Shown piece by piece: positions 5,923 through 62,904 of a DNA stretch of 64,000 bases. The stretch comes from an uncultured delta proteobacterium (lineage in GTDB: Bacteria; Desulfobacterota; WTBG01): NCBI GenBank assembly GCA_963751515.1, contig CAVVUR010000013.1, forward strand, positions 132,829 to 196,828, written 5' to 3'. Numbering within the stretch: position 1 is the stretch's first letter; each line of letters begins with the position of its first letter. The notes under the pieces are model-generated. The model was not told the DNA's origin. It ran no database searches and worked only from the letters and a program-made list of their open reading frames with translations. The translations under genes and the position numbers were made by a program.

Positions 5923-6869
5923 GCACGCCAACAGCACCCATAAGCAATCTGCAGAACCTGTTGTCACAGGGAGAATTTGTCGTCACCGCTGAATGCGGTC
6001 CACCCCGGGGGGCCGATGCCGATGCCGTTGCCAAAAAGGTCGCATACCTCAAAGGCTTCGTTGACGCGGTAAACGTGACCGATAATCAAACCGCGATCGT
6101 GCGCATGTCCAGTATCGCCGCATCCACCCACCTCCTGCAGCAGGGGGTGGAGCCGGTCATGCAGATGGTCACCCGCGACCGCAACCGCATCGCCCTGCAA
6201 TCGGATATCATGGGGGCCTATTCCCTGGGCATACGTAACATTCTCTGCCTGTCGGGCGACCACCAGAGCTTTGGCAGCCAGCCCGATGCCCTGAATGTCT
6301 TCGATATCGATTCCCTGCATCTGATCCGGGCGGTGCGCACCATGCGCGATGAGGGAAAGGACATGAGCGGCTTCGAGCTGAAAGGCGCTCCCCGCATGTT
6401 CATCGGGGCCGCCGAAAATCCCTTCGCCGATCCCTTTGAATACCGGGTTATCCGGCTGGCAAAAAAGATTGATGCCGGTGTTGACTTCATACAGACGCAG
6501 TGCATCTATAACATGGAGCGCTTCAAGGCTTGGATGAAAATGGCCAGAGAAGAGGGACTGACCGAAAAGGTGCACATCCTGGCCGGCGTGACCCCCCTGA
6601 AATCGGCGGGGATGGCGAGTTACATGGCGCACAAGGTAGCGGGGATGGACATTCCCGAGAGCCTGCTCAAACGGATCGCCGACGTGCCCAAGGAGAAGGC
6701 GTCCAGGGAAGGCATTGCCGTATGCCTTGAGACTATTGAGGAACTCAAGACCATACCCGGGGTGCGCGGCATTCATATCATGGCCATCGAGTGGGAGCAA
6801 AAAGTGGAAGAGATTGTCAGGGCCGCGGGACTGCTGCCCCGACCGGCACAGGCACTAACAGGTTGTTGA
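5919..6869 (+). CDS. metF: 5,10-methylenetetrahydrofolate reductase (acetogen-type MetF)
   Basis: 316 aa, recognisable MTHFR family sequence (VNVTDNQTAIVRMSS, DFIQTQCIYN). The last codons and the TGA stop (6867..6869) lie inside repeat element R1. Confidence 0.88.
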   Translation: MSTPTAPISNLQNLLSQGEFVVTAECGPPRGADADAVAKKVAYLKGFVDAVNVTDNQTAIVRMSSIAASTHLLQQGVEPVMQMVTRDRNRIALQSDIMGAYSLGIRNILCLSGDHQSFGSQPDALNVFDIDSLHLIRAVRTMRDEGKDMSGFELKGAPRMFIGAAENPFADPFEYRVIRLAKKIDAGVDFIQTQCIYNMERFKAWMKMAREEGLTEKVHILAGVTPLKSAGMASYMAHKVAGMDIPESLLKRIADVPKEKASREGIAVCLETIEELKTIPGVRGIHIMAIEWEQKVEEIVRAAGLLPRPAQALTGC

Positions 6870-7144
6870 AAAATTATTTTTCCTCAGGCTGTTCAAGGGC
6901 TCAAGGGGGAGGGGCTTTTTAGCCACAACAAAATTATTCTGAACCTGTAGAACGGCAGCATCTCTTTAACTTTGTCCGACAGACCCGCATGGCAACAGCC
7001 GTATCGAAGCCTCTGCAAAGCTGCCTGTCTTCGGTTTAAGTCGAAGGCACCGGGTCGTGCCGTAAGTCGACAAACAAATTGTTGTGGCGTCAAAAGCCCC
7101 TCCCCCTTGAGCCACAAATCAGATGGGTGTTTTTCAACAGCCTG
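6859..7144 (-). mobile_element. family-1 type B element R1, full copy with both outer box extensions (non-coding, MITE/REP-like)
   Basis: Box CAGGTTGTTGAAAAA (6859), second box CAGGCTGTTCAA (6885), arm GGCTCAAGGGGGAGGGGCTTTTTAGCCACAACAAAA, about 145-nt core, arm TTGTTGTGGCGTCAAAAGCCCCTCCCCCTTGAGCCAC, extension AAATCAGATGGGTG, box TTTTTCAACAGCCTG (ends 7144). Homologous to 10152, 39256, 53948 and 62654. Confidence 0.85.
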
Positions 7145-7158
7145 CCAGGGAGTTTGCG

Positions 7159-10151: not shown

Positions 10152-10377
10152 GTGGCCCGTGGGGCGGAGGGCCTTTTAAAGCCACAACAATTTGTTTGCG
10201 ACTTACGTCACGACCCCGTGCCTTACGTATTAAACCGGGGACAGGCAGCTTTCCAGAGACTTCGATAAAGGCTGTTGCTATGGGGTCTGTTAGAACAAAA
10301 TTACAAGGTCGCTGCCGTTCCACAAGCACCGAAGAATTTTGTTGTGGCTTTAAAAGGCCCTCCGCCCCACGGGCCAC
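10152..10377 (+). mobile_element. family-1 type B element R2, variant subfamily with concertedly changed arms
   Basis: Arms GTGGCCCGTGGGGCGGAGGGCCTTTTAAAGCCACAACAA (10152) and TTGTTGTGGCTTTAAAAGGCCCTCCGCCCCACGGGCCAC (ends 10377) are perfect inverted copies over about 38 nt. The core is homologous to the other type B copies but more diverged. Confidence 0.85.
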
Positions 10378-13043: not shown

Positions 13044-13159
13044 CCGGCTGTTGAAAAAGTAGTGGCGCAGGCTGATAAAGCTTGCTGAATAGTATGTGGC
13101 GTCAAAAGCCCGTCCACTTGAGCCACGAATCAGCTGGGTGTTTTTCAAAAGCCTGCTAG
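13044..13159 (-). repeat. family-1 mini element R3 (box + filler + one arm + extension + box)
   Basis: CCGGCTGTTGAAAAA (13044) ... GTGGCGTCAAAAGCCCGTCCACTTGAGCCACGAATCAGCTGGGTGTTTTTCAAAAGCCTGCTAG (ends 13159). It starts 1 nt after the TGA of the upstream gene and ends 19 nt before the nadE ATG. Confidence 0.8.
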
Positions 13160-17676: not shown

Positions 17677-17826
17677 CAGGCTGTTGAAAAACACCATCTG
17701 CGGCGTTACGCGCATCCTTGGTCATTGCGGCGTACCGGAATGTACGCCTCATTCCTCGGGATTTCGCGTGCCTTGCATCTGGACGTTTTTGAACAGCCTG
17801 GGGAAAAATACTTTTTCAACAATCTG
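17677..17826 (+). mobile_element. family-1 type A element R4 (non-coding, shares terminal box with type B) plus trailing box
   Basis: CAGGCTGTTGAAAAACACCATCTG...GGCGTAC-CGGAAT-GTACGCC...CATCTGGACGTTTTTGAACAGCCTG (to 17800), then GGGAAAAATAC-TTTTTCAACAATCTG. Homologous to 23747 and 54130. Confidence 0.8.
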
Positions 17827-22357: not shown

Positions 22358-23749
22358 ATGGTATCAACTATGAGTCACCCACCGACAAATGAGATGGAAC
22401 GGCCGCTGCGGGAAGCATGCGGCATATTTGGCATCTTCGGCCATGAAGATGCCGCCCGCATTGCCTACCTCGGCCTGTATGCACTGCAGCACCGGGGGCA
22501 GGAGAGTGCGGGCATTGTGGTTTCCGACGGGAAGCATCTCACCGGCTACCGGGGTATGGGGCTGGTGCCCGAGATCTTTCACGAAGAGGGGCTGAAAAAG
22601 CTGAAAGGAGACCGGGCCATTGGCCACGTGCGCTATTCCACCACGGGCAGCTCGGAGATAAAAAATGCGCAGCCTTTTCAGGTTGAGTATTTGCGGGGAT
22701 CACTTGCCATAGCCCACAACGGCAACCTGGTCAACACGCTTGATCTCAAAAGAGCGCTGGAAAAAGCAGGGTCGATCTTTCAGTCCACCATGGACAGCGA
22801 GATCATTGTTCACCTGCTCGCCCGTTCAAAAGGCGCTGTCCTCGAAGACGCGCTGATTGAATCCCTCCCCCAGCTTAAAGGGGCCTATGCCCTGGTCCTG
22901 CTTACCCCGCATGAGATGATCGGCATCAGGGATCCTCACGGGCTGAGGCCTCTCTGCATCGGCATGCTTGACGGATCCTACGTCTTCGCCTCGGAGACCT
23001 GCGCCCTGGATCTCATCCAGGCCGACTATGTACGCGAAGTTGAGCCGGGGGAGATAGTCACCGTCGATGAAAACGGGCTGCGTTCGCTTAAGCCCTTTCC
23101 CGCGGCACGGCCTGCGCTCTGCATATTTGAGTTCATCTATTTTGCCCGGCCCGACAGCAGTGTCTTCGGCGGGGGCGTTTACCAGGCGCGCAAGCTACTG
23201 GGCAGGGAGCTGGCCCGTGAGCAGCCGGTTAATGTCGATCTGGTGATACCCATGCCAGATTCCGGCAACTGTGCCGCCCTCGGCTTTGCTGAAGCCTCAC
23301 AAATACCCTTCGAAATGGCCATGACCAGGAATCACTACGTGGGCCGCACCTTTATTCAGCCCACCCAGATCAGCAGGGACCTGGCGGTAAAGGTGAAGCT
23401 GAATCCGGTCAAGGATGTGATAAGGGACAAGCGGATCGTGGTCATCGAGGATTCCATTGTCCGGGGTACCACCAGCAAGATCAGGGTGAGAAATTTGCGG
23501 GAGGCCGGCGCGCGGGAAGTGCACATGCGGATAAGCTGCCCTCCCCACCGCCACCCCTGCTACTATGGCATTGATTTTCCCACCCGCAAGGAACTCATTG
23601 CCTCCTCCCACTCGGTGGACGAGATTGCCCGTTTCATGGGGCTGGACAGCCTGGGATACCTCAGCCCGGAAGGCATGATGAAAGCCATGCCCTTCGACCG
23701 GGGGAAATTTTGCCTCTCCTGCTTTGACGGCCGGTATCCGGTAATCTAG
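22358..23749 (+). CDS. purF: amidophosphoribosyltransferase
   Basis: About 463 aa from ATG 22358 (AAGGAG upstream; ATG 22370 is an alternative). Ntn Cys in CGIFGIFG; PRTase loop VVIEDSIVRGTT. The TAG stop at 23747..23749 is the first triplet of repeat R5. Confidence 0.9.
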   Translation: MVSTMSHPPTNEMERPLREACGIFGIFGHEDAARIAYLGLYALQHRGQESAGIVVSDGKHLTGYRGMGLVPEIFHEEGLKKLKGDRAIGHVRYSTTGSSEIKNAQPFQVEYLRGSLAIAHNGNLVNTLDLKRALEKAGSIFQSTMDSEIIVHLLARSKGAVLEDALIESLPQLKGAYALVLLTPHEMIGIRDPHGLRPLCIGMLDGSYVFASETCALDLIQADYVREVEPGEIVTVDENGLRSLKPFPAARPALCIFEFIYFARPDSSVFGGGVYQARKLLGRELAREQPVNVDLVIPMPDSGNCAALGFAEASQIPFEMAMTRNHYVGRTFIQPTQISRDLAVKVKLNPVKDVIRDKRIVVIEDSIVRGTTSKIRVRNLREAGAREVHMRISCPPHRHPCYYGIDFPTRKELIASSHSVDEIARFMGLDSLGYLSPEGMMKAMPFDRGKFCLSCFDGRYPVI

Positions 23750-23872
23750 CAGGCTGCTGAAAAACACCCATCTGCGGCGTACTCACATGTACGCCTCATT
23801 CCTCAGAATTTCGCGAGCCTTGCATCTGGATGTTTTTGAACAGCCTGCCAAAAGCTGATTTTTCAACAGCTG
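23747..23872 (+). mobile_element. family-1 type A element R5 (shorter variant) plus trailing box
   Basis: TAGCAGGCTGCTGAAAAACACCCATCTGCGGCGTAC-TCACAT-GTACGCC...CATCTGGATGTTTTTGAACAGCCTG, then CCAAAAGCTGA-TTTTTCAACAGCTG. It lacks about 26 nt present in R4 between the direct repeats GCGGCGT(T)AC. Confidence 0.8.
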
Positions 23873-29251: not shown

Positions 29252-29290
29252 GCGTGTTCCTCCGAGCAGGCACGCTCTGAATCAAAGCAC

Positions 29291-29362
29291 TAGCAGGTTG
29301 TTGAAAAACAACCATCTGATTTGTGGCGCAAGGGGGAGGGGCTTTTGACGCCACAACAATGT
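29291..29362 (+). repeat. family-1 solo unit R6 (TAG-box + extension + one arm)
   Basis: TAGCAGGTTGTTGAAAAACAACCATCTGATTTGTGGCGCAAGGGGGAGGGGCTTTTGACGCCACAACAATG, between the mutS stop (29408) and the mutL start (29251). Confidence 0.8.
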
Positions 29363-29407
29363 TTCTTCCAGCGCTCCATCACTCCAATACCCCAGCGTCT
29401 ACAAACC

Positions 29408-37409: not shown

Positions 37410-37432
37410 AGGTTAGCCGCCGCCCGGACCGG

Positions 37433-39220
37433 CTAGGAAACGCCGGCAGTGGAGCCGCCCTGCGCCGGGACGTCTTCCTCATGATATTGGGTGGTATACA
37501 GCTTGTGGTATTCTCCCTGGCCCGCCATGAGATCGCCGTGGGTCCCCTGTTCCGCTATCCTTCCTTCCGAAAGCACGATGATGCGGTCGGCCTTTTTAAT
37601 GGTGGAGAGGCGGTGGGCAATGATGAAGGTGGTCCGGCCTTCCATGAGGCGCTCCAGGGCCACCTGCACCTCGGCCTCGGCCTTGCTGTCGAGCGAGGAG
37701 GTTGCCTCATCCAGGATGAGGATGGGGGCGTTCTTGAGCAGCGCGCGGGCAATGGCAATCCGCTGCTTCTGGCCGCCGGAGAGCTTGACCCCGTGTTCGC
37801 CGATGACCGCGTCATATCCCCCGGGGTTATCCATGATGAAGTCGTGGGCGTGGGCGGCCTCGGCAGCGGCCCTGATCTCCGCTTCGGGTTTGTCCATGCT
37901 GCCGTAGGAGATGTTGTGCCGTATAGTGTCGTTGAAGAGTATTATTTCCTGGGTTACCATGCTGATCCGGCTGCGCAGCGATCTGATGGTCACATCCCTG
38001 ATGTCGACGCCATCGATGAGAATGGCCCCCGAGGTCACGTCGTAGAATCGGGGTATGAGGTTGGCCATGGTTGATTTTCCCGCCCCGCTGCCGCCCACGA
38101 TGGCGATGATCTGGCCCACCGGGACATTCAGCGTAATGTGCTCCAGGACCGGCTGCGCGTCATACTGAAAGCAGACGTCCCTGAATTCGATCCCTTCACT
38201 GACCGGCGGCAGCTCACGCGCGTCGGGCTTGTCCACGATATCCGCTTTGGTGTCGAGAATTTCAAAGGTTCGTACCGCCGCGGCAAGCCCTTCCTGCATG
38301 GTCTGGTTGAGCTTGTTGAGCTCGCGCACCGGGCGGTACATCATGGCAAACGCCGCCACAAATGAGAAAAAGTCCCCCGAGGTGATCTCTCCCCTGAGAA
38401 CGCTGTGCCCGCCGAAGTAGAGAATGACCGCGGAGGCGATGCCGCCCAGCGTTTCCATGGTGGGGGAGGCGAGGGCGCGGATGCGCATCCGCTTTACCCT
38501 GATCCTGAGCAAGCGGTGATTTTCATCGGAGAAGCGGCGGCTTTCATACTCCTCCATGCAAAAGGCCTTGACGATGCGGATGCCGGAGATGGTCTCGTAG
38601 AGAAATTTGGCGATGTCCGCCATTTTCACCTGGCTCTTGGTGCTGAACTTCCGGCTTTTGATGCCGAAGATGCGGATGGGCACCAGGGCCCAGAGAATGA
38701 CCAGGTAGGACATGGCGGCAAGCTTCCAGTTTACCCAGAAGGTGTAGCCGGTTAGGCCCGCGATGGTGAGCGCGTCGCGCAGGAAGTTGGTGATGCTGTC
38801 CGATACCGTGGACTGCAGCAGGTTGGTGTCGTTGCTGATGCGCGACATGATTATACCGGTGGGATTCCTGATGAAGAAGGCGAGGGACAGCTTCTGCAGG
38901 TGGCAATAGATTTCGTCCCGGATGTCAGTGACCACTTTAACCGCCACATATCCCATCAGGTATTCTTGGAAATAGTCAAACAGTCCCTTGAGCAGGTAGA
39001 GGCCGACGATGGCCAGGGGTACGAGCCGGAGCATGGTAAGATTCTTCTGCACGAAGATGTCGTCCATCACTTTCTTGACGATCCCGGCGATGCCGGTATT
39101 GGCACCCGCCAGCCCCACGGCGGAGAGGACTGCAAGGAGCATCAGCAGCCAGTAGGGCTTGATGTACCTGATCAGGCGCTTGTACAGCCTGATGGAATCT
39201 TTGGTTGATATCTTTTTCAT
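37433..39220 (-). CDS. msbA: lipid A export ABC transporter MsbA-like (TMD+NBD)
   Basis: About 595 aa from ATG 39220; track start 39286 lies in repeat R8. Six predicted TM helices; GGSGAGKST, LSGGQKQRIAIARA, ILILDEATSSLD. Confidence 0.85.
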   Translation of the reverse strand: MKKISTKDSIRLYKRLIRYIKPYWLLMLLAVLSAVGLAGANTGIAGIVKKVMDDIFVQKNLTMLRLVPLAIVGLYLLKGLFDYFQEYLMGYVAVKVVTDIRDEIYCHLQKLSLAFFIRNPTGIIMSRISNDTNLLQSTVSDSITNFLRDALTIAGLTGYTFWVNWKLAAMSYLVILWALVPIRIFGIKSRKFSTKSQVKMADIAKFLYETISGIRIVKAFCMEEYESRRFSDENHRLLRIRVKRMRIRALASPTMETLGGIASAVILYFGGHSVLRGEITSGDFFSFVAAFAMMYRPVRELNKLNQTMQEGLAAAVRTFEILDTKADIVDKPDARELPPVSEGIEFRDVCFQYDAQPVLEHITLNVPVGQIIAIVGGSGAGKSTMANLIPRFYDVTSGAILIDGVDIRDVTIRSLRSRISMVTQEIILFNDTIRHNISYGSMDKPEAEIRAAAEAAHAHDFIMDNPGGYDAVIGEHGVKLSGGQKQRIAIARALLKNAPILILDEATSSLDSKAEAEVQVALERLMEGRTTFIIAHRLSTIKKADRIIVLSEGRIAEQGTHGDLMAGQGEYHKLYTTQYHEEDVPAQGGSTAGVS

Positions 39221-39255
39221 CCCTCTTCCTTTAAGAGATTTGTCATAATGTATTC

Positions 39256-39474
39256 GTGGCTCAAGGGGAGGGGCTTTTGACGCCACAACAATTTGTCTTG
39301 AGGCTTACGGCACGACCCGTTGCCTTACGACTTAAACCGCAGACAGGCAGCATTACAGAGGCTTCGATACGGGCTGTTGCCATGCGGGTCTGTCGGACAA
39401 AGTTAGAGAGATGCTGCCGTTCTACCGGCTCCGAATAATTTTGTTGTGGCGTCAAAAGCCCCTCCCCTTGAGCC
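39256..39474 (+). mobile_element. family-1 type B element R8, cleanest full copy (arms + core, no outer boxes)
   Basis: GTGGCTCAAGGGGAGGGGCTTTTGACGCCACAACAATTTG - core - AATTTTGTTGTGGCGTCAAAAGCCCCTCCCCTTGAGCC, between lpxB (end 39507) and msbA (start 39220). Confidence 0.88.
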
Positions 39475-39506
39475 TACATATTATTCAGCACGTTATATAG
39501 ACCGAT

Positions 39507-40664
39507 TCAGGCGGGCCGGCGCTTAAGCATGCCAAGCGCGATCCGGGCCGCCCGCGCCGATGCCCCCGGTTCGCCGAGCTTCTTTTTGATCAACTCCAGT
39601 TCCGCATGAACGGTTCGGTAATACTGAGTATCGGAGAGCAGTCGGGCGGCTTCGGCGGCAATCCGCTCCCCGCTGGCCTCGTCCTGGATCAGCTCCGGCA
39701 CCACTTTTTTGCCGGCAATGATGTTGGCCATCCCGATGTAAGGTACCTTGACCAGCAGCCGGGCGATGCCATAGCTGAGCGTTGACATCCGGTACACGAT
39801 AACCATGGGCCTGGCGAGCAGCGCCGTTTCCAGGCTGGCCGTCCCCGACGCCACGATGACCAGGTATGAGCTGTCGATGACATCATAGATGCTGTTTTCG
39901 ACCAGGGTTGCCGAAACGGCGGCGCCCCGGATCAGCTGCTCCATCTCCGCCTTGTGCAGGCCCGGCGCTACGGGTATGATGAACTGCAGGTCCGCGCGCT
40001 CCATGCTCAGCCGGCGGGCGGCATCCAGCATGGGCGGCAGTATGCGCTTTACTTCACTGAGCCTGCTGCCGGGCAGCAGGCCGATGGCGGTGCGGCCCGG
40101 CGCAATGCCCAGGCGCTTGCTGTTCTCCTCCCGCGAACGGGAAACCTTCACGATGTCCAGAAGGGGATGACCCACGAAATGCGCGTCAACGCCGGCCTCC
40201 CGGTACAGGGAAAGTTCAAAGGGAAACACCACCACCATGGTGCTGACCGACGCGGCAATCTGCTTAATGCGACCGGTTCGCCAGGCCCAGATCTGGGGGC
40301 TGACGTAGTACATAACCGGTATGCGGTACTTTTTGGCGACCCTGGCCAGGCGCAGGTTAAAATCAGGGTAATCGACCAGGATGAGCAGGTCCGGCCGGTC
40401 GCGCTTGAGGGTGAGCGTCAGCTTCCTGAAGGCGCCGTAGATGGTTCCCAGGTGTCCGATCACTTCGGTGATGCCCATCACCGCGTGCCGGGATATGTCA
40501 ACGATGATCTCCGCGCCCGCTTCCCGCAACCCATCGCCGCCCATGGCGGAGACGGAAAGCGCGGAGTTCTCCGCGCGCATGGCCTTCACCAGATGGGAGG
40601 CCAGGAGATCTCCGGAAGCCTCGCCGGCGACGATGAGAATCCGCTGTGCCGTGTCGCTATTCAA
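39507..40664 (-). CDS. lpxB: lipid-A-disaccharide synthase
   Basis: 385 aa. ILIVAGEASGD, DYPDFNLRLA, YYVSPQIWAWR motifs. Confidence 0.9.
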   Translation of the reverse strand: MNSDTAQRILIVAGEASGDLLASHLVKAMRAENSALSVSAMGGDGLREAGAEIIVDISRHAVMGITEVIGHLGTIYGAFRKLTLTLKRDRPDLLILVDYPDFNLRLARVAKKYRIPVMYYVSPQIWAWRTGRIKQIAASVSTMVVVFPFELSLYREAGVDAHFVGHPLLDIVKVSRSREENSKRLGIAPGRTAIGLLPGSRLSEVKRILPPMLDAARRLSMERADLQFIIPVAPGLHKAEMEQLIRGAAVSATLVENSIYDVIDSSYLVIVASGTASLETALLARPMVIVYRMSTLSYGIARLLVKVPYIGMANIIAGKKVVPELIQDEASGERIAAEAARLLSDTQYYRTVHAELELIKKKLGEPGASARAARIALGMLKRRPA

Positions 40665-42893: not shown

Positions 42894-42983
42894 TAGCAGG
42901 TTGTTAAAAAAGTGTTTTCCTCAGGCTGTTCTAAAGGCTCAAAAGCCCCTTCCCCTTGAGCCACAAATCAGATGGTTAAAAAT
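42894..42983 (-). repeat. family-1 internally deleted element R9 (outer boxes + fused arms, core missing)
   Basis: TAGCAGGTTGTTAAAAAAGTGTTTTCCTCAGGCTGTTCTAAAGGCTCAAAAGCCCCTTCCCCTTGAGCCACAAATCAGATGGTTAAAAA. It is collinear with R1 except for loss of everything between GGCTCAA and AAAGCCCC. It ends 1 nt before the lpxD stop codon. Confidence 0.8.
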
Positions 42984-44646: not shown

Positions 44647-44712
44647 CAGGCTGTTCAAAAGCCCCTCCCCCTTGAGCCACAAATCAGATAGGTGTTTTTC
44701 AAAAGCCTGCTA
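44647..44712 (-). repeat. family-1 internally deleted mini element R10
   Basis: CAGGCTGTTCAAAAGCCCCTCCCCCTTGAGCCACAAATCAGATAGGTGTTTTTCAAAAGCCTGCTA. The terminal CTA (44710..44712) is the TAG stop of bamA. Confidence 0.8.
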
Positions 44713-53947: not shown

Positions 53948-54371
53948 TAGCAGGTTGTTGAAATACACCCATCTGATTTGTGGCTCAAGGGGGAGGGGCT
54001 TTTGACGCCACAACAATGTGTCTTAACGCTTACGGCACGACCCGGTGCCTTCGACGTGAGCCGAAAGCAGGCAGCTTTGCAGAGGCTTCGATCGGCTGGT
54101 GCCGGACGGGTCTGTCTGACAAAGTTAGACAGGCTGTTGAAAAATCCCCAGCTGCTGCGTTACGCTCATCCTTCGTCATTGCAGCGTACCTGAATGTACG
54201 CCTCATTCCTCAGGATTTCGCGTGCCTTGCATCTGGTGGTTTTTGAACAGCCTGAAAACCAGCAAGAAAGTTGCTGCCGTTCTACAGGCTCGGAATAATT
54301 TTGTTGTGGCTAAAAAGCCCCTCCCCCTTGAGCCTTTGACAGCCTGAGAAAAATACTTTTTCAACAACCTG
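53948..54371 (+). mobile_element. family-1 type B element R11, full copy with outer boxes, interrupted by a nested type A element
   Basis: TAGCAGGTTGTTGAAATACACCCATCTGATTTGTGGCTCAAGGGGGAGGGGCTTTTGACGCCACAACAATG - core up to GACAAAGTTAGA | type A | AAAACCAGCAAGAAAGTTGCTGCCGTTCTACAGG - arm - TTTGACAGCCTG-agaaaaatac-TTTTTCAACAACCTG. Confidence 0.85.
54130..54254 (+). mobile_element. family-1 type A element nested inside R11
   Basis: CAGGCTGTTGAAAAATCCCCAGCTGCTGCGTTACGCTCATCCTTCGTCATTGCAGCGTAC-CTGAAT-GTACGCC...CATCTGGTGGTTTTTGAACAGCCTG splits the type B core at a position that is contiguous in the other four copies. Confidence 0.85.
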
Positions 54372-61161: not shown

Positions 61162-61226
61162 AAATCCGGAATCAGCATATCGAAGCACGAAACAAATCAA
61201 AATACCAAATGACCAAAATTCAAAAC
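61162..61226. repeat. family-2 repeat, left half only
   Basis: AAATCCGGAATCAGCATATCGAAGCACGAAACAAATCAAAATACCAAATGACCAAAATTCAAAACC parallels the left half of 61373..61535. Confidence 0.55.
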
Positions 61227-61372: not shown

Positions 61373-61535
61373 TGCAAATTCGAAATCCGAAGCACGAAAC
61401 AAAGCCGAGCAATGAATGACAAAGTTCAAATGACGAAAATATAAAAACGGACCTGCGCCCACGGATGTTTTGGACATTTGAAAATTTGAATTTTGGATTT
61501 GTTTCGAATTTCGGATTCGTGCTTCGGATTTTGCA
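61373..61535. repeat. family-2 repeat, complete imperfect-palindromic copy (about 163 bp)
   Basis: The left end TGCAAATTCGAAATCCGAAGCACGAAACAAA and right end TTTGTTTCGAATTTCGGATTCGTGCTTCGGATTTTGCA are inverted. Internal CAAAGTTCAAATGAC / GACATTTGAAAATTTG are also inverted. Confidence 0.65.
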
Positions 61536-61618: not shown

Positions 61619-62656
61619 ATGATGAAGAGAATCGGCATTCTTACCGGCGGCGGCGACTGTCCCGGGCTCAATGCGGTCATACGGGCGGTGGTGAAACGGG
61701 CCATTGATACCTACAAGTTTGAGGTGATCGGCATCAGGGAAGGGTGGGCCGGCCTGATCAAAGGGCAGGTGGAGCCGCTTACCCTTTTTTCCGTCACCGG
61801 AATACTTCCCCGCGGGGGGACCATCCTGGGCACCTCCCGGACCAACCCCTTTAAGGCCGAGGAAACCCTGCAGAAAATGCTCAACAACATCAAGCGCTAT
61901 GGCATAGAGGGCTTCATCTGCGTGGGCGGCGAGGATACCCTTGGCGTTGCAAGCCGGCTGCATGAGATGGGCATTCCGGTGGTGGGTATTCCTAAAACCA
62001 TTGACAATGACCTTCCCTGCACCGATTATACCTTCGGGTTCGATACGGCAGTCAGCATCGTTACCGAGGCGATTGACCGGCTGCACACCACGGCGGAATC
62101 CCATCACCGGGTCATGGTGGTTGAAGTCATGGGGAGGCACACCGGGTGGATTGCCACCGTCGCCGGCATTGCCGGCGGAGCCGATTGCATCCTCATTCCC
62201 GAAGTGCCGTTCAGGCTTGAAGAGGTGGCCGAATTGCTCAAGCAGCGCCGCAAACGCGGCAAGACCTTCAGCATCATTGTGGTGGCGGAGGGGGTGGAGC
62301 TCAATCACGACAGCGGCGTGGTGGTGCAGGACGAAAAGACCGATGAATTCGGCCACGCGCTCCTGGGGGGCATAGGCAATATCATAGCCAGGAAGCTCGA
62401 AGACCTGACGGGCATGGAGACTAGGGTTACCAACCTGGGATATGTGCAGAGGGGAGGCACGCCCACTGCGTTCGACCGGGTGCTGGCCACGCGCTTCGGG
62501 GTGAAGGCGGTGGATATGCTGGCAAACAAGGAATTCGGCAAAATGGCCTGTCTGCGGGGTACTAGCATTGAAGCCATTGACCTGAAGGAAGTGGCCTCCG
62601 GCAATAAGAAAATCAACCCGGACTTGTATAAGGTTGCCGAGCTTTTCTTCGGCTAG
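61619..62656 (+). CDS. pfk: 6-phosphofructokinase (ATP- or PPi-dependent, not resolved)
   Basis: 345 aa. GILTGGGDCPGLNA, VGGEDTL, PKTIDNDL, VMGRHTGW. The TAG stop 62654..62656 is the first triplet of repeat R12. Confidence 0.88.
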   Translation: MMKRIGILTGGGDCPGLNAVIRAVVKRAIDTYKFEVIGIREGWAGLIKGQVEPLTLFSVTGILPRGGTILGTSRTNPFKAEETLQKMLNNIKRYGIEGFICVGGEDTLGVASRLHEMGIPVVGIPKTIDNDLPCTDYTFGFDTAVSIVTEAIDRLHTTAESHHRVMVVEVMGRHTGWIATVAGIAGGADCILIPEVPFRLEEVAELLKQRRKRGKTFSIIVVAEGVELNHDSGVVVQDEKTDEFGHALLGGIGNIIARKLEDLTGMETRVTNLGYVQRGGTPTAFDRVLATRFGVKAVDMLANKEFGKMACLRGTSIEAIDLKEVASGNKKINPDLYKVAELFFG

Positions 62657-62904
62657 CAGGCTGTTATAAAAACCATCTGATTCGTGGCGCAAAGGGAGGC
62701 TATTTTGACGCCACAACAATGTGTCTTTACGCTTACGGCACGACCCGGTGTCTTACGACTTAAACCGCAGACAGGCAGCTTTGCAGGGGCTTGAATACGG
62801 GCTGTTGCCCTACGGGCCTGTCGGACAAAATTAGAAAGTCGCTGCCGTTCTACAGGCTCCGAATAATTTTGTTGTGGCTAAAAAGCCCTTCCCCCTTGAG
62901 CCAC
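62654..62904 (+). mobile_element. family-1 type B element R12, full copy with left outer box
   Basis: TAGCAGGCTGTTATAAAAACCATCTGATTCGTGGCGCAAAGGGAGGCTATTTTGACGCCACAACAATG - core - AATTTTGTTGTGGCTAAAAAGCCCTTCCCCCTTGAGCCAC. Confidence 0.88.

Follow-up and report, generated by a model that had tools for sequence, protein, structure and literature searches.

The window analysed here, a 64-kb stretch of DNA, carries housekeeping genes, including those for MTHFR, a glutamate-synthase-like protein, lpxB-msbA, bamA, pilB and tig. Within the spacer between lpxB (stop at 39507) and msbA (start at 39220), both on the - strand, lies a repeat of ~220 bp, in which inverted arms of ~38 nt (GTGGC...GCCAC) enclose a core of ~145 nt. 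Repeat finding, alignment and blastn identified five full copies and four arm remnants of this element in the window, in agreement with the five copies reported by a first-pass annotation made from the sequence alone. Most copies lie within further repeat modules, referred to below as shells of type 1 and type 2. The features are as follows:

39256..39474, + strand: the full copy under study, with 34-nt arms that are 100% complementary; from the sequence, left arm ~39256-39293, core ~39294-39436 and right arm ~39437-39474.
6898..7115, - strand: full copy in a type-1 shell (~6859-7148) with ends CAGGYTGTTGAAAAA...
10152..10377, + strand: divergent stand-alone full copy with perfectly complementary 39-nt arms.
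53980..54334, + strand: full copy with its core interrupted by a member of a second MITE family at ~54129-54260.
62684..62904, + strand: full copy with decayed arms (77% complementary), preceded by a left type-1 module at 62654-62683.
13095..13126, - strand: solo hairpin GTGGC...GACGCCAC in type-1 shell remnants, with the structure expected from a GCCAC-GCCAC deletion.
29323..29372, + strand: left arm and first ~13 nt of the core, then truncated, next to a type-1 left module at 29290-29322.
42939..42977, - strand: solo arm from an internal TTGA...TTGA deletion, in a type-1 shell in the lpxD-fabZ spacer.
44655..44712, - strand: solo arm from a TTTGA...TTTGA deletion, fused to a type-1 shell end (repeat finding).
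37410..37432, no strand: empty site, the 23-nt msbA-kdtA spacer, filled in the related loci L128 and L130.

The 6898 copy occupies the spacer that separates the glutamate-synthase-like gene from that for MTHFR, and the 53980 copy is enclosed by a type-1 shell at 53948-54371. The 10152 copy is 81% identical to the 39256 copy, and has unique flanks without a target-site duplication. Pairwise identity of the window copies is 68-91%, their flanks differ, and 1-nt indels as well as substitutions separate them. This excludes assembly duplication, a possibility that had been raised for them, and also a coding function, since no reading frame is kept, as had been proposed. A 22-nt arm motif occurs six times in the window, with 0.01 occurrences expected by chance. 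The spans originally assigned to three of the copies (6859-7144, 53948-54371 and 62654-62904) contain real copies together with adjoining outer repeat modules. Similarly, the earlier estimate of 12 loci, 2.7 kb and 4% of the window is reached only if other repeat families are counted too, whereas the nhmmer model of the element alone covers 1,163 nt (1.8%) in 6 loci, to which 3 short solo arms are added. An apparently non-coding direct repeat of 36 nt with 75% identity (CGAAGCACGAAACAAA...) is also present at 61181-61216 and 61388-61423, 207 nt apart.

Related copies are present in uncultured Thermodesulfobacteriota MAGs, and the core pattern matches at least 120 metagenome contigs. A contig scan with an exact consensus 30-mer, which has no exact match in any window copy, yielded 4 loci. 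The MAG and metagenome loci compared with the window are designated by L-numbers (e.g., L127). A census with nhmmer of the window and 126 such loci, of the kind proposed at the outset, gave 142 non-overlapping matches, 81 of them full length (214-225 nt), with about 75 full-length copies in MAG and metagenome loci beyond the window. Seventy-one unique full copies constitute the alignment referred to here as A2. Alignment and census together bear out the description of the element as intergenic, non-coding and present in many copies, with inverted arms able to form hairpins.

The host, a bacterium of the sediment type, belongs to an uncultured Thermodesulfobacteriota lineage and is not a Geobacter, as the closest named LpxB ("Deltaproteobacteria bacterium DG_8") is only 64% identical. 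The BamA of the window has a match only in a Logan metagenome assembly, and a look-up of the exact MsbA protein of the window found no record. An identity with the Geobacter multicopy sequences was rejected, because the catalogues of such sequences that supplement the genome papers of G. metallireducens and G. bemidjiensis do not contain the arm motifs. A phage or plasmid origin was likewise rejected: PLSDB contained no match to the element, and three pattern matches in IMG/VR (L126, L133 and L134) arose by chance in sequences that lack the element. Rfam models at gathering scores matched the window solely at a tRNA (54777), and a search of 39200-39520 at E<=10 returned solely a chance snoRNA match of 16 bits, so the element has no Rfam match at either level, consistent with the failure of the first-pass annotation to place it in an Rfam family.

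Many metagenome contigs end inside a copy. As contigs often stop at the start of the element, the family visibly fragments assemblies of the host lineage. One contig (L131) stops at the first bases of the element, ...AAATATTTGG, corresponding to window position 10153. For annotation, this means that the repeat family breaks metagenome assemblies and lengthens spacers within housekeeping operons (lpxB-msbA, lpxD-fabZ and MTHFR-glt), and that a naive reading could take it for an sRNA gene family.

The arms measure 34-39 nt, in line with the inverted arms of about 38 bp originally described, and those of the 39256 and 10152 copies show 100% complementarity. Because of these arms, the whole copy has a predicted folding energy of -121 kcal/mol (z = -11), whichever strand is folded. 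Across the 71 copies of A2 an arm-arm helix is predicted with compensatory changes: UA to GC in 7 copies, CG to UA in 5, AU to UA, CG or GC in 15, and GC to AU in 18. Over the outer 22 nt, arms of the same copy are 0.846 identical and those of different copies 0.775, a difference reached in 0 of 2000 permutations. Selection for pairing could underlie this co-variation of the arms, as could a copying mechanism, quasi-palindrome (template-switch) correction or subfamily descent. The stem that was proposed to close within each arm, GTGGC with GCCAC, is conserved in A2, but comprises only five invariant pairs that never co-vary; additional TCAA/TTGA pairs occur in the main subfamily only and are lost in the others. 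The 39256 copy has two perfectly complementary arms of the GACGCCAC type (window 39441-39474). Most copies, in contrast, have a right arm of the TTTTTAGCCAC type, to which the solo hairpin found at this site in two relatives (L127:4191-4228) also belongs; this suggests that the arms were recently homogenised in the lineage of the window.

The ends of the element are exact (GTGGC...GCCAC), and no target-site duplication was found in any context, with at least 10 independent contexts represented. The modular architecture recognised in the first-pass annotation was confirmed, as the element is nested with other repeats. Type-1 shells have the form CAGGYTGTTGAAAAACACCCATCTGATTy, element, ...TTTTTCAACAACCTG, with YTAR on either side. 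The four bases flanking them vary as direct repeats (TTAG/TTAG, CTAA/CTAA and CTGG/CTGG), indicating a target-site duplication of the IS5 kind for the shell. Type-2 shells, whose ends are unrelated to those of type 1, begin with TGTAGTGCGTC... after CTAG and end with ...GACGCACTACAC before TAG. They are found at L128:3486-3805, L130:6192-6511 and many other loci (e.g., L013, L046 and L084), and contained the element or a solo hairpin in 31 of 31 occurrences, a proportion biased by the choice of loci for the core. At least five copies (window 10152, L039, L067, L069 and L122) lie in unique DNA, with flanks found nowhere else in the ~590 kb compared. A screen of the flanks for palindromic flanks or hairpin-tip targeting found no complementary flank base in 45 of 53 scored copies, a tentative negative since its boundary detection missed known cases, L039 among them.

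Both orientations of the element occur at identical junctions, in type-2 shells (L078 and L073) as well as type-1 shells (window 6898 compared with L127). The simplest explanation is that the inverted arms recombine within their outer portion, and for this reason we did not count the flips as evidence of transposition. The insertion in the core of the 53980 copy is a 125-bp MITE of the second family with ends CAGGCTGTTGAAAAA...TTTTTGAACAGCCTG, flanked by TTAG and CAAG in the window copy, whereas in L045 TTAG stands at either end. L036, L096, L045 and L105 carry this insertion too, at an unchanged position in the core, within both shell types and in differing outer contexts; five copies sharing one nested insertion imply that the element moves, or is converted, as a unit.

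This second MITE family has members of ~115-125 bp in the window (17687-17826, 23734-23870 and 54129-54260), with ends CAGGCTGTTGAAAAACACC...GGTTTTTGAACAGCCTG and flanking repeats of the YTAR type. Its terminal 25 nt equal the type-1 shell ends, which suggests that one IS5-like transposase serves several cargo types. A small unit composed of two shell termini in tandem (CAGGTTGTTGAAAAAttaTTTTTCCTCAGGCTGTTCAA) is present at 6859-6896 and 17789-17826; it recurs at the right edge of the type-1 shell and looks like a minimal or empty shell.

Syntenic relatives were reached through homologues of LpxB and of the glutamate-synthase-like protein, and comparison of the same sites revealed both full versus solo and filled versus empty differences, the presence/absence polymorphism whose examination had been proposed. 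The lpxB-msbA spacer holds the full 219-nt copy in the window and a solo hairpin in L127 (LpxB 98% identical) and L128 (85%). In these two relatives the spacer is 95 nt long and contains the solo GT(A)GGCTCAAGGGGAGGGGCTTTTTAGCCAC, with GCCAC joined to GAATAC at the junction; the solo hairpin of the 98%-identical relative measures 31 nt. The direction of this change, gain or loss, is ambiguous because the solo is of the TTTTTAGCCAC arm type and both window arms are of the GACGCCAC type. In the lpxB-msbA spacer of an 84% relative (L130:4180-4404), a different, unrelated insert of ~225 nt was observed. It is rich in CCCCTC/GGGGAG runs, contains internal inverted repeats CCACAGCAGAGCTGC...CCACAGCAGAGTTGTGG, and may represent another repeat family.

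In the lpxD-fabZ spacer, L127 has a full shell with the element where the window (42939-42977) has the TTGA...TTGA deletion, and the flanks are nearly identical. The 23-nt msbA-kdtA spacer is empty in the window (37410-37432) and L127; in L128 and L130 a type-2 shell with the element is inserted at CCTAG, with TAG repeated. The MTHFR-glt spacer measures 13 nt in L132, an 85% relative, versus a composite of 290 nt in the window. The element is thus gained, lost and truncated between close relatives. Solo hairpins of a first type correspond to deletion between the GCCACs that end the arms (window 13095, L044 and L127/L128), at sites or in contexts where full copies are also found, and those of a second type to deletion between TTGA microhomologies (window 42939 and 44655). 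A palindromic element without target-site duplication is thereby seen turning over between 98%-identical genomes, outside the well-studied Proteobacteria.

The element behaves like selfish miniature mobile DNA. We regard the unit as probably a REPIN/MITE-like, palindromic, non-autonomous and non-coding mobile element of ~220 bp, and favour a REPIN-like single-strand route for its movement. The lack of a target-site duplication argues against a classical cut-and-paste MITE of the DDE type and favours such a single-strand route, and a REPIN/RAYT-like route best accounts for hairpin arms in inverted orientation, for the compensatory changes and for the GCCAC singlets (PMC3116915, PMC3337134). In the mechanism that we propose, the two ~38-nt inverted arms can pair into a single long hairpin, and each arm may weakly fold on itself through GTGGC/GCCAC. 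A trans-acting HUH/Y1 enzyme (RAYT- or IS200-like) would act at the foot of each arm hairpin, allowing the element to move alone, with exact GTGGC...GCCAC ends and without duplicating its target. In addition it spreads, as the filled and empty sites show, as a passenger of the two unrelated outer shell MITEs, which insert by (C)TAG/YTAR duplication in the manner of IS5-type elements. Solo hairpins arise by deletion between the GCCACs at the 3' ends of the arms or between TTGA microhomologies, as the junctions in the window and its relatives show, and recombination of the inverted arms would flip the element within its shells. Where the element lies in an operon spacer such as lpxB-msbA, its 34-39-bp stem may, when transcribed, serve as an RNase III or mRNA-stability site.

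The first-pass annotation had seen no transposase in the vicinity. Consistent with this, none was found nearby, two regular-expression screens of all ORFs in the ~590 kb compared detected no HUH/Y1-like ORF, and a search of the same DNA for an autonomous parent found no arm pair flanking a segment of 0.3-5 kb.

Independent movement is the part of the preferred reading that is contested by the one clean empty-versus-filled pair, at msbA-kdtA, where shell and element were inserted as one unit at (C)TAG. The element could instead be immobile by itself: the central cargo of IS5-like MITEs, with stand-alone copies being eroded shells and the flips being arm inversions. The location of most copies within shells is in keeping with this, as are the direct 4-nt repeats that vary at the shell flanks and the occurrence of both orientations at identical junctions, which arm-to-arm inversion predicts. 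Recombination or gene conversion between copies, instead of transposition, could also account for the flips in orientation and for the way the nested insertion spread. We nevertheless consider this explanation unlikely, on two grounds. Shells with unrelated ends (CAGGYTGTTGAAAAA... and TGTAGTGCGTC...) share the element with the same exact GTGGC/GCCAC boundaries, which requires at least one precise transfer between shells, and the copies in unique DNA, at least five in number, are bounded by exact ends, with no trace of a shell to the left or right.

A bolder version of the REPIN-like reading, which we consider distinctly doubtful, holds that the family represents a class of REPIN-like replicator not described before, moved by a trans-acting, non-duplicating enzyme (of the HUH/Y1 type or another), carrying a sequence-conserved cargo of 145 nt and colonising other MITEs to give nested mosaics. 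The cargo would then be kept for a reason other than RNA covariation, for example as a protein-binding platform or mobilisation signal.

It is quite improbable, in our assessment, that the element is a classical MITE, moved in cut-and-paste fashion by an unseen DDE insertion sequence whose terminal inverted repeats the 38-nt arms would represent. The long, nearly perfect terminal inverted repeats, the non-coding length of ~220 bp, and the many copies with presence/absence differences among relatives would suit such an origin. Against it, the element lacks a target-site duplication in all of the contexts compared (at least 10 of them independent), whereas the neighbouring shells clearly duplicate their targets; no parent insertion sequence or arm-flanked gene was found in the ~590 kb compared; and the arms co-vary and are not fixed for one binding protein.

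The core was originally interpreted as a possible transcribed, structured RNA or strand-specific intermediate. The consensus given for it at that time agrees with the aligned copies, the mean pairwise identity of the core over many copies and genomes is 84%, and blocks such as GCTGTTGCCATGCGGGTCTGTCGGAC and CTGCCGTTCTAC are nearly invariant in A2; this conservation would be compatible with an RNA function. The core (0.84) is not, however, better conserved than the arms (0.88). With RNAalifold, just GGCA/UGCC and tiny hairpins are kept in the core in A2, without compensatory change. Covariation in the minimum-energy structure of the core, the support for which had been left to be checked, amounts to 0.075 versus 0.079 for shuffled controls, with 484 of 500 shuffles reaching at least the value of the core. 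Folds of the core alone vary among copies, with z-scores from -2.0 to +0.3.

The specific argument for a transcribed strand had been that differences between copies in the GACAGGC/GYCTGTC segments remain G:U-compatible on one strand only. This did not hold, as departures in the core helices are of the G:U type in 87 cases and of the A:C type in 78. The GACAGGC/GYCTGTC helix itself has uncompensated G to A changes (giving A:C) in 16 copies and A to G changes (giving G:U) in 20, and in the GGCAC/GTGCC helix one pair is lost in 14 copies. A scan of two copies for promoters and terminators found none inside them, with matches solely in the flank of the 62684 copy; the consensus left arm of A2 includes a promoter-like match, TTGACG-17-TACGCT, that reads into the core and scores 8/12, under the threshold of the scan. 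Between co-directional genes, the element lies in sense orientation in 10 cases and antisense in 13, and thus shows no orientation bias.

Given the null outcome of the tests on covariation, folding, G:U versus A:C departures and orientation, and with no Rfam match and a core that still reached five sites when broken by the 125-bp insertion, we consider it highly improbable that a functional structured RNA, whether an sRNA, a cis-regulator or a guide-like RNA, is encoded in the core with the arms as processing or stabilising stems, in spite of the conserved blocks and the weak promoter-like match. In our preferred reading the core is conserved by common descent and not by RNA structure, and we class the element as palindromic, non-autonomous mobile DNA instead of the structured-RNA family suspected earlier.

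The first-pass annotation was unable to assign the element to a REP, BIME or MITE family. It overlooked the absence of a target-site duplication, the IS5-like shells that duplicate (C)TAG, the presence/absence and full/solo differences between relatives at the same sites, and the close resemblance to REPINs in inverted arms, singlets and compensatory changes. Among the known systems, the BIME and BOX mosaics (BIMEs of E. coli and the pneumococcal boxA-boxB-boxC elements) are similar in that a few modules occur in intergenic regions in variable arrangement and orientation. Unlike these, the mosaic described here consists of separable units nested in one another, all with ends of their own, and there is no sequence similarity and no match to an Rfam family. 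In PATEs derived from IS200/IS605, the subterminal hairpins of the left and right ends share one orientation, and insertion takes place 3' of a fixed tetra- or pentanucleotide. The arms of the element are true inverted repeats and the last bases of its left flank vary (TTCA, ATTC, ATAT, TTTG, ACAC, CTCA and others), on the basis of which an identity with PATEs was rejected. IS5 elements target YTAR with a 4-bp duplication. The outer shells and the nested MITE of the second family resemble IS5-family MITEs in their short terminal repeats (CAGGYTGTTGAAAAA) and direct repeats of 3-4 nt ((C)TAG/TTAG); the likeness is restricted to the shells, as the ends of the element itself have no duplication.

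With classical MITEs, such as Chunjie and the Correia/NEMIS elements of Neisseria, the element shares a length of ~220 bp, terminal inverted repeats, a non-coding nature and insertion in operon spacers, as well as a very stable predicted hairpin (-121 kcal/mol) and the occurrence of full-length beside truncated copies. It differs from classical MITEs as a class in that it has no target-site duplication and no known parent insertion sequence. Chunjie, a MITE of Geobacter uraniireducens, is described as 178-235 bp long and A+T-rich, with 21-bp TIRs and 9-bp direct repeats (PMC3184786, PMC10969869). By that description the element is set apart from Chunjie: its arms are 38 nt instead of 21, it lacks a target-site duplication, and it is not, by eye, visibly A+T-rich.

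The closest resemblance is to REPINs. REPINs, like the element, are not known to make a target-site duplication. Each REP has its own imperfect palindrome, allowing an alternative 'clover' fold, and the genome carries one cognate RAYT (Y1/HUH) gene, in a single copy, with these repeats on both sides. REPINs consist of two REPs in inverted orientation, which pair into a hairpin and show compensatory changes (PMC3116915); they are moved by transposases of the RAYT Y1 type (Bertels & Rainey 2011, PMC3116915, PMC3337134), and leave a palindromic singlet upon excision at the 3' end of both palindromes (PMC3337134). Like REPINs, the element consists of two inverted, hairpin-capable repeats that pair into one long hairpin, with compensatory changes between the two sides; its copies are intergenic and numerous, its singlets are decayed remnants, and its solos at window 13095, L044 and L127/L128 fit deletion at the 3' ends of both palindromes. 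Unlike REPINs, in which spacers of ~35-110 nt are conserved only in length or pairing, it has a sequence-conserved spacer of 145 nt. Its ~38-nt arms are longer than typical REPs with an intra-arm palindrome of just 5-9 bp, many copies are embedded in other MITEs, and no RAYT was found in the ~590 kb compared. The element therefore departs from REPINs in one defining trait, because its spacer is long (~145 nt), 84% identical and does not pair across itself, and agrees with them in its inverted, mutually pairing repeats and in its palindromic singlets. An excision signature like that of REPINs is thus combined with a spacer that is long and conserved; should the genome encode a cognate RAYT-like protein, the REPIN/RAYT system would be extended to a new lineage and a new architecture, and otherwise the element would be ordinary selfish DNA.
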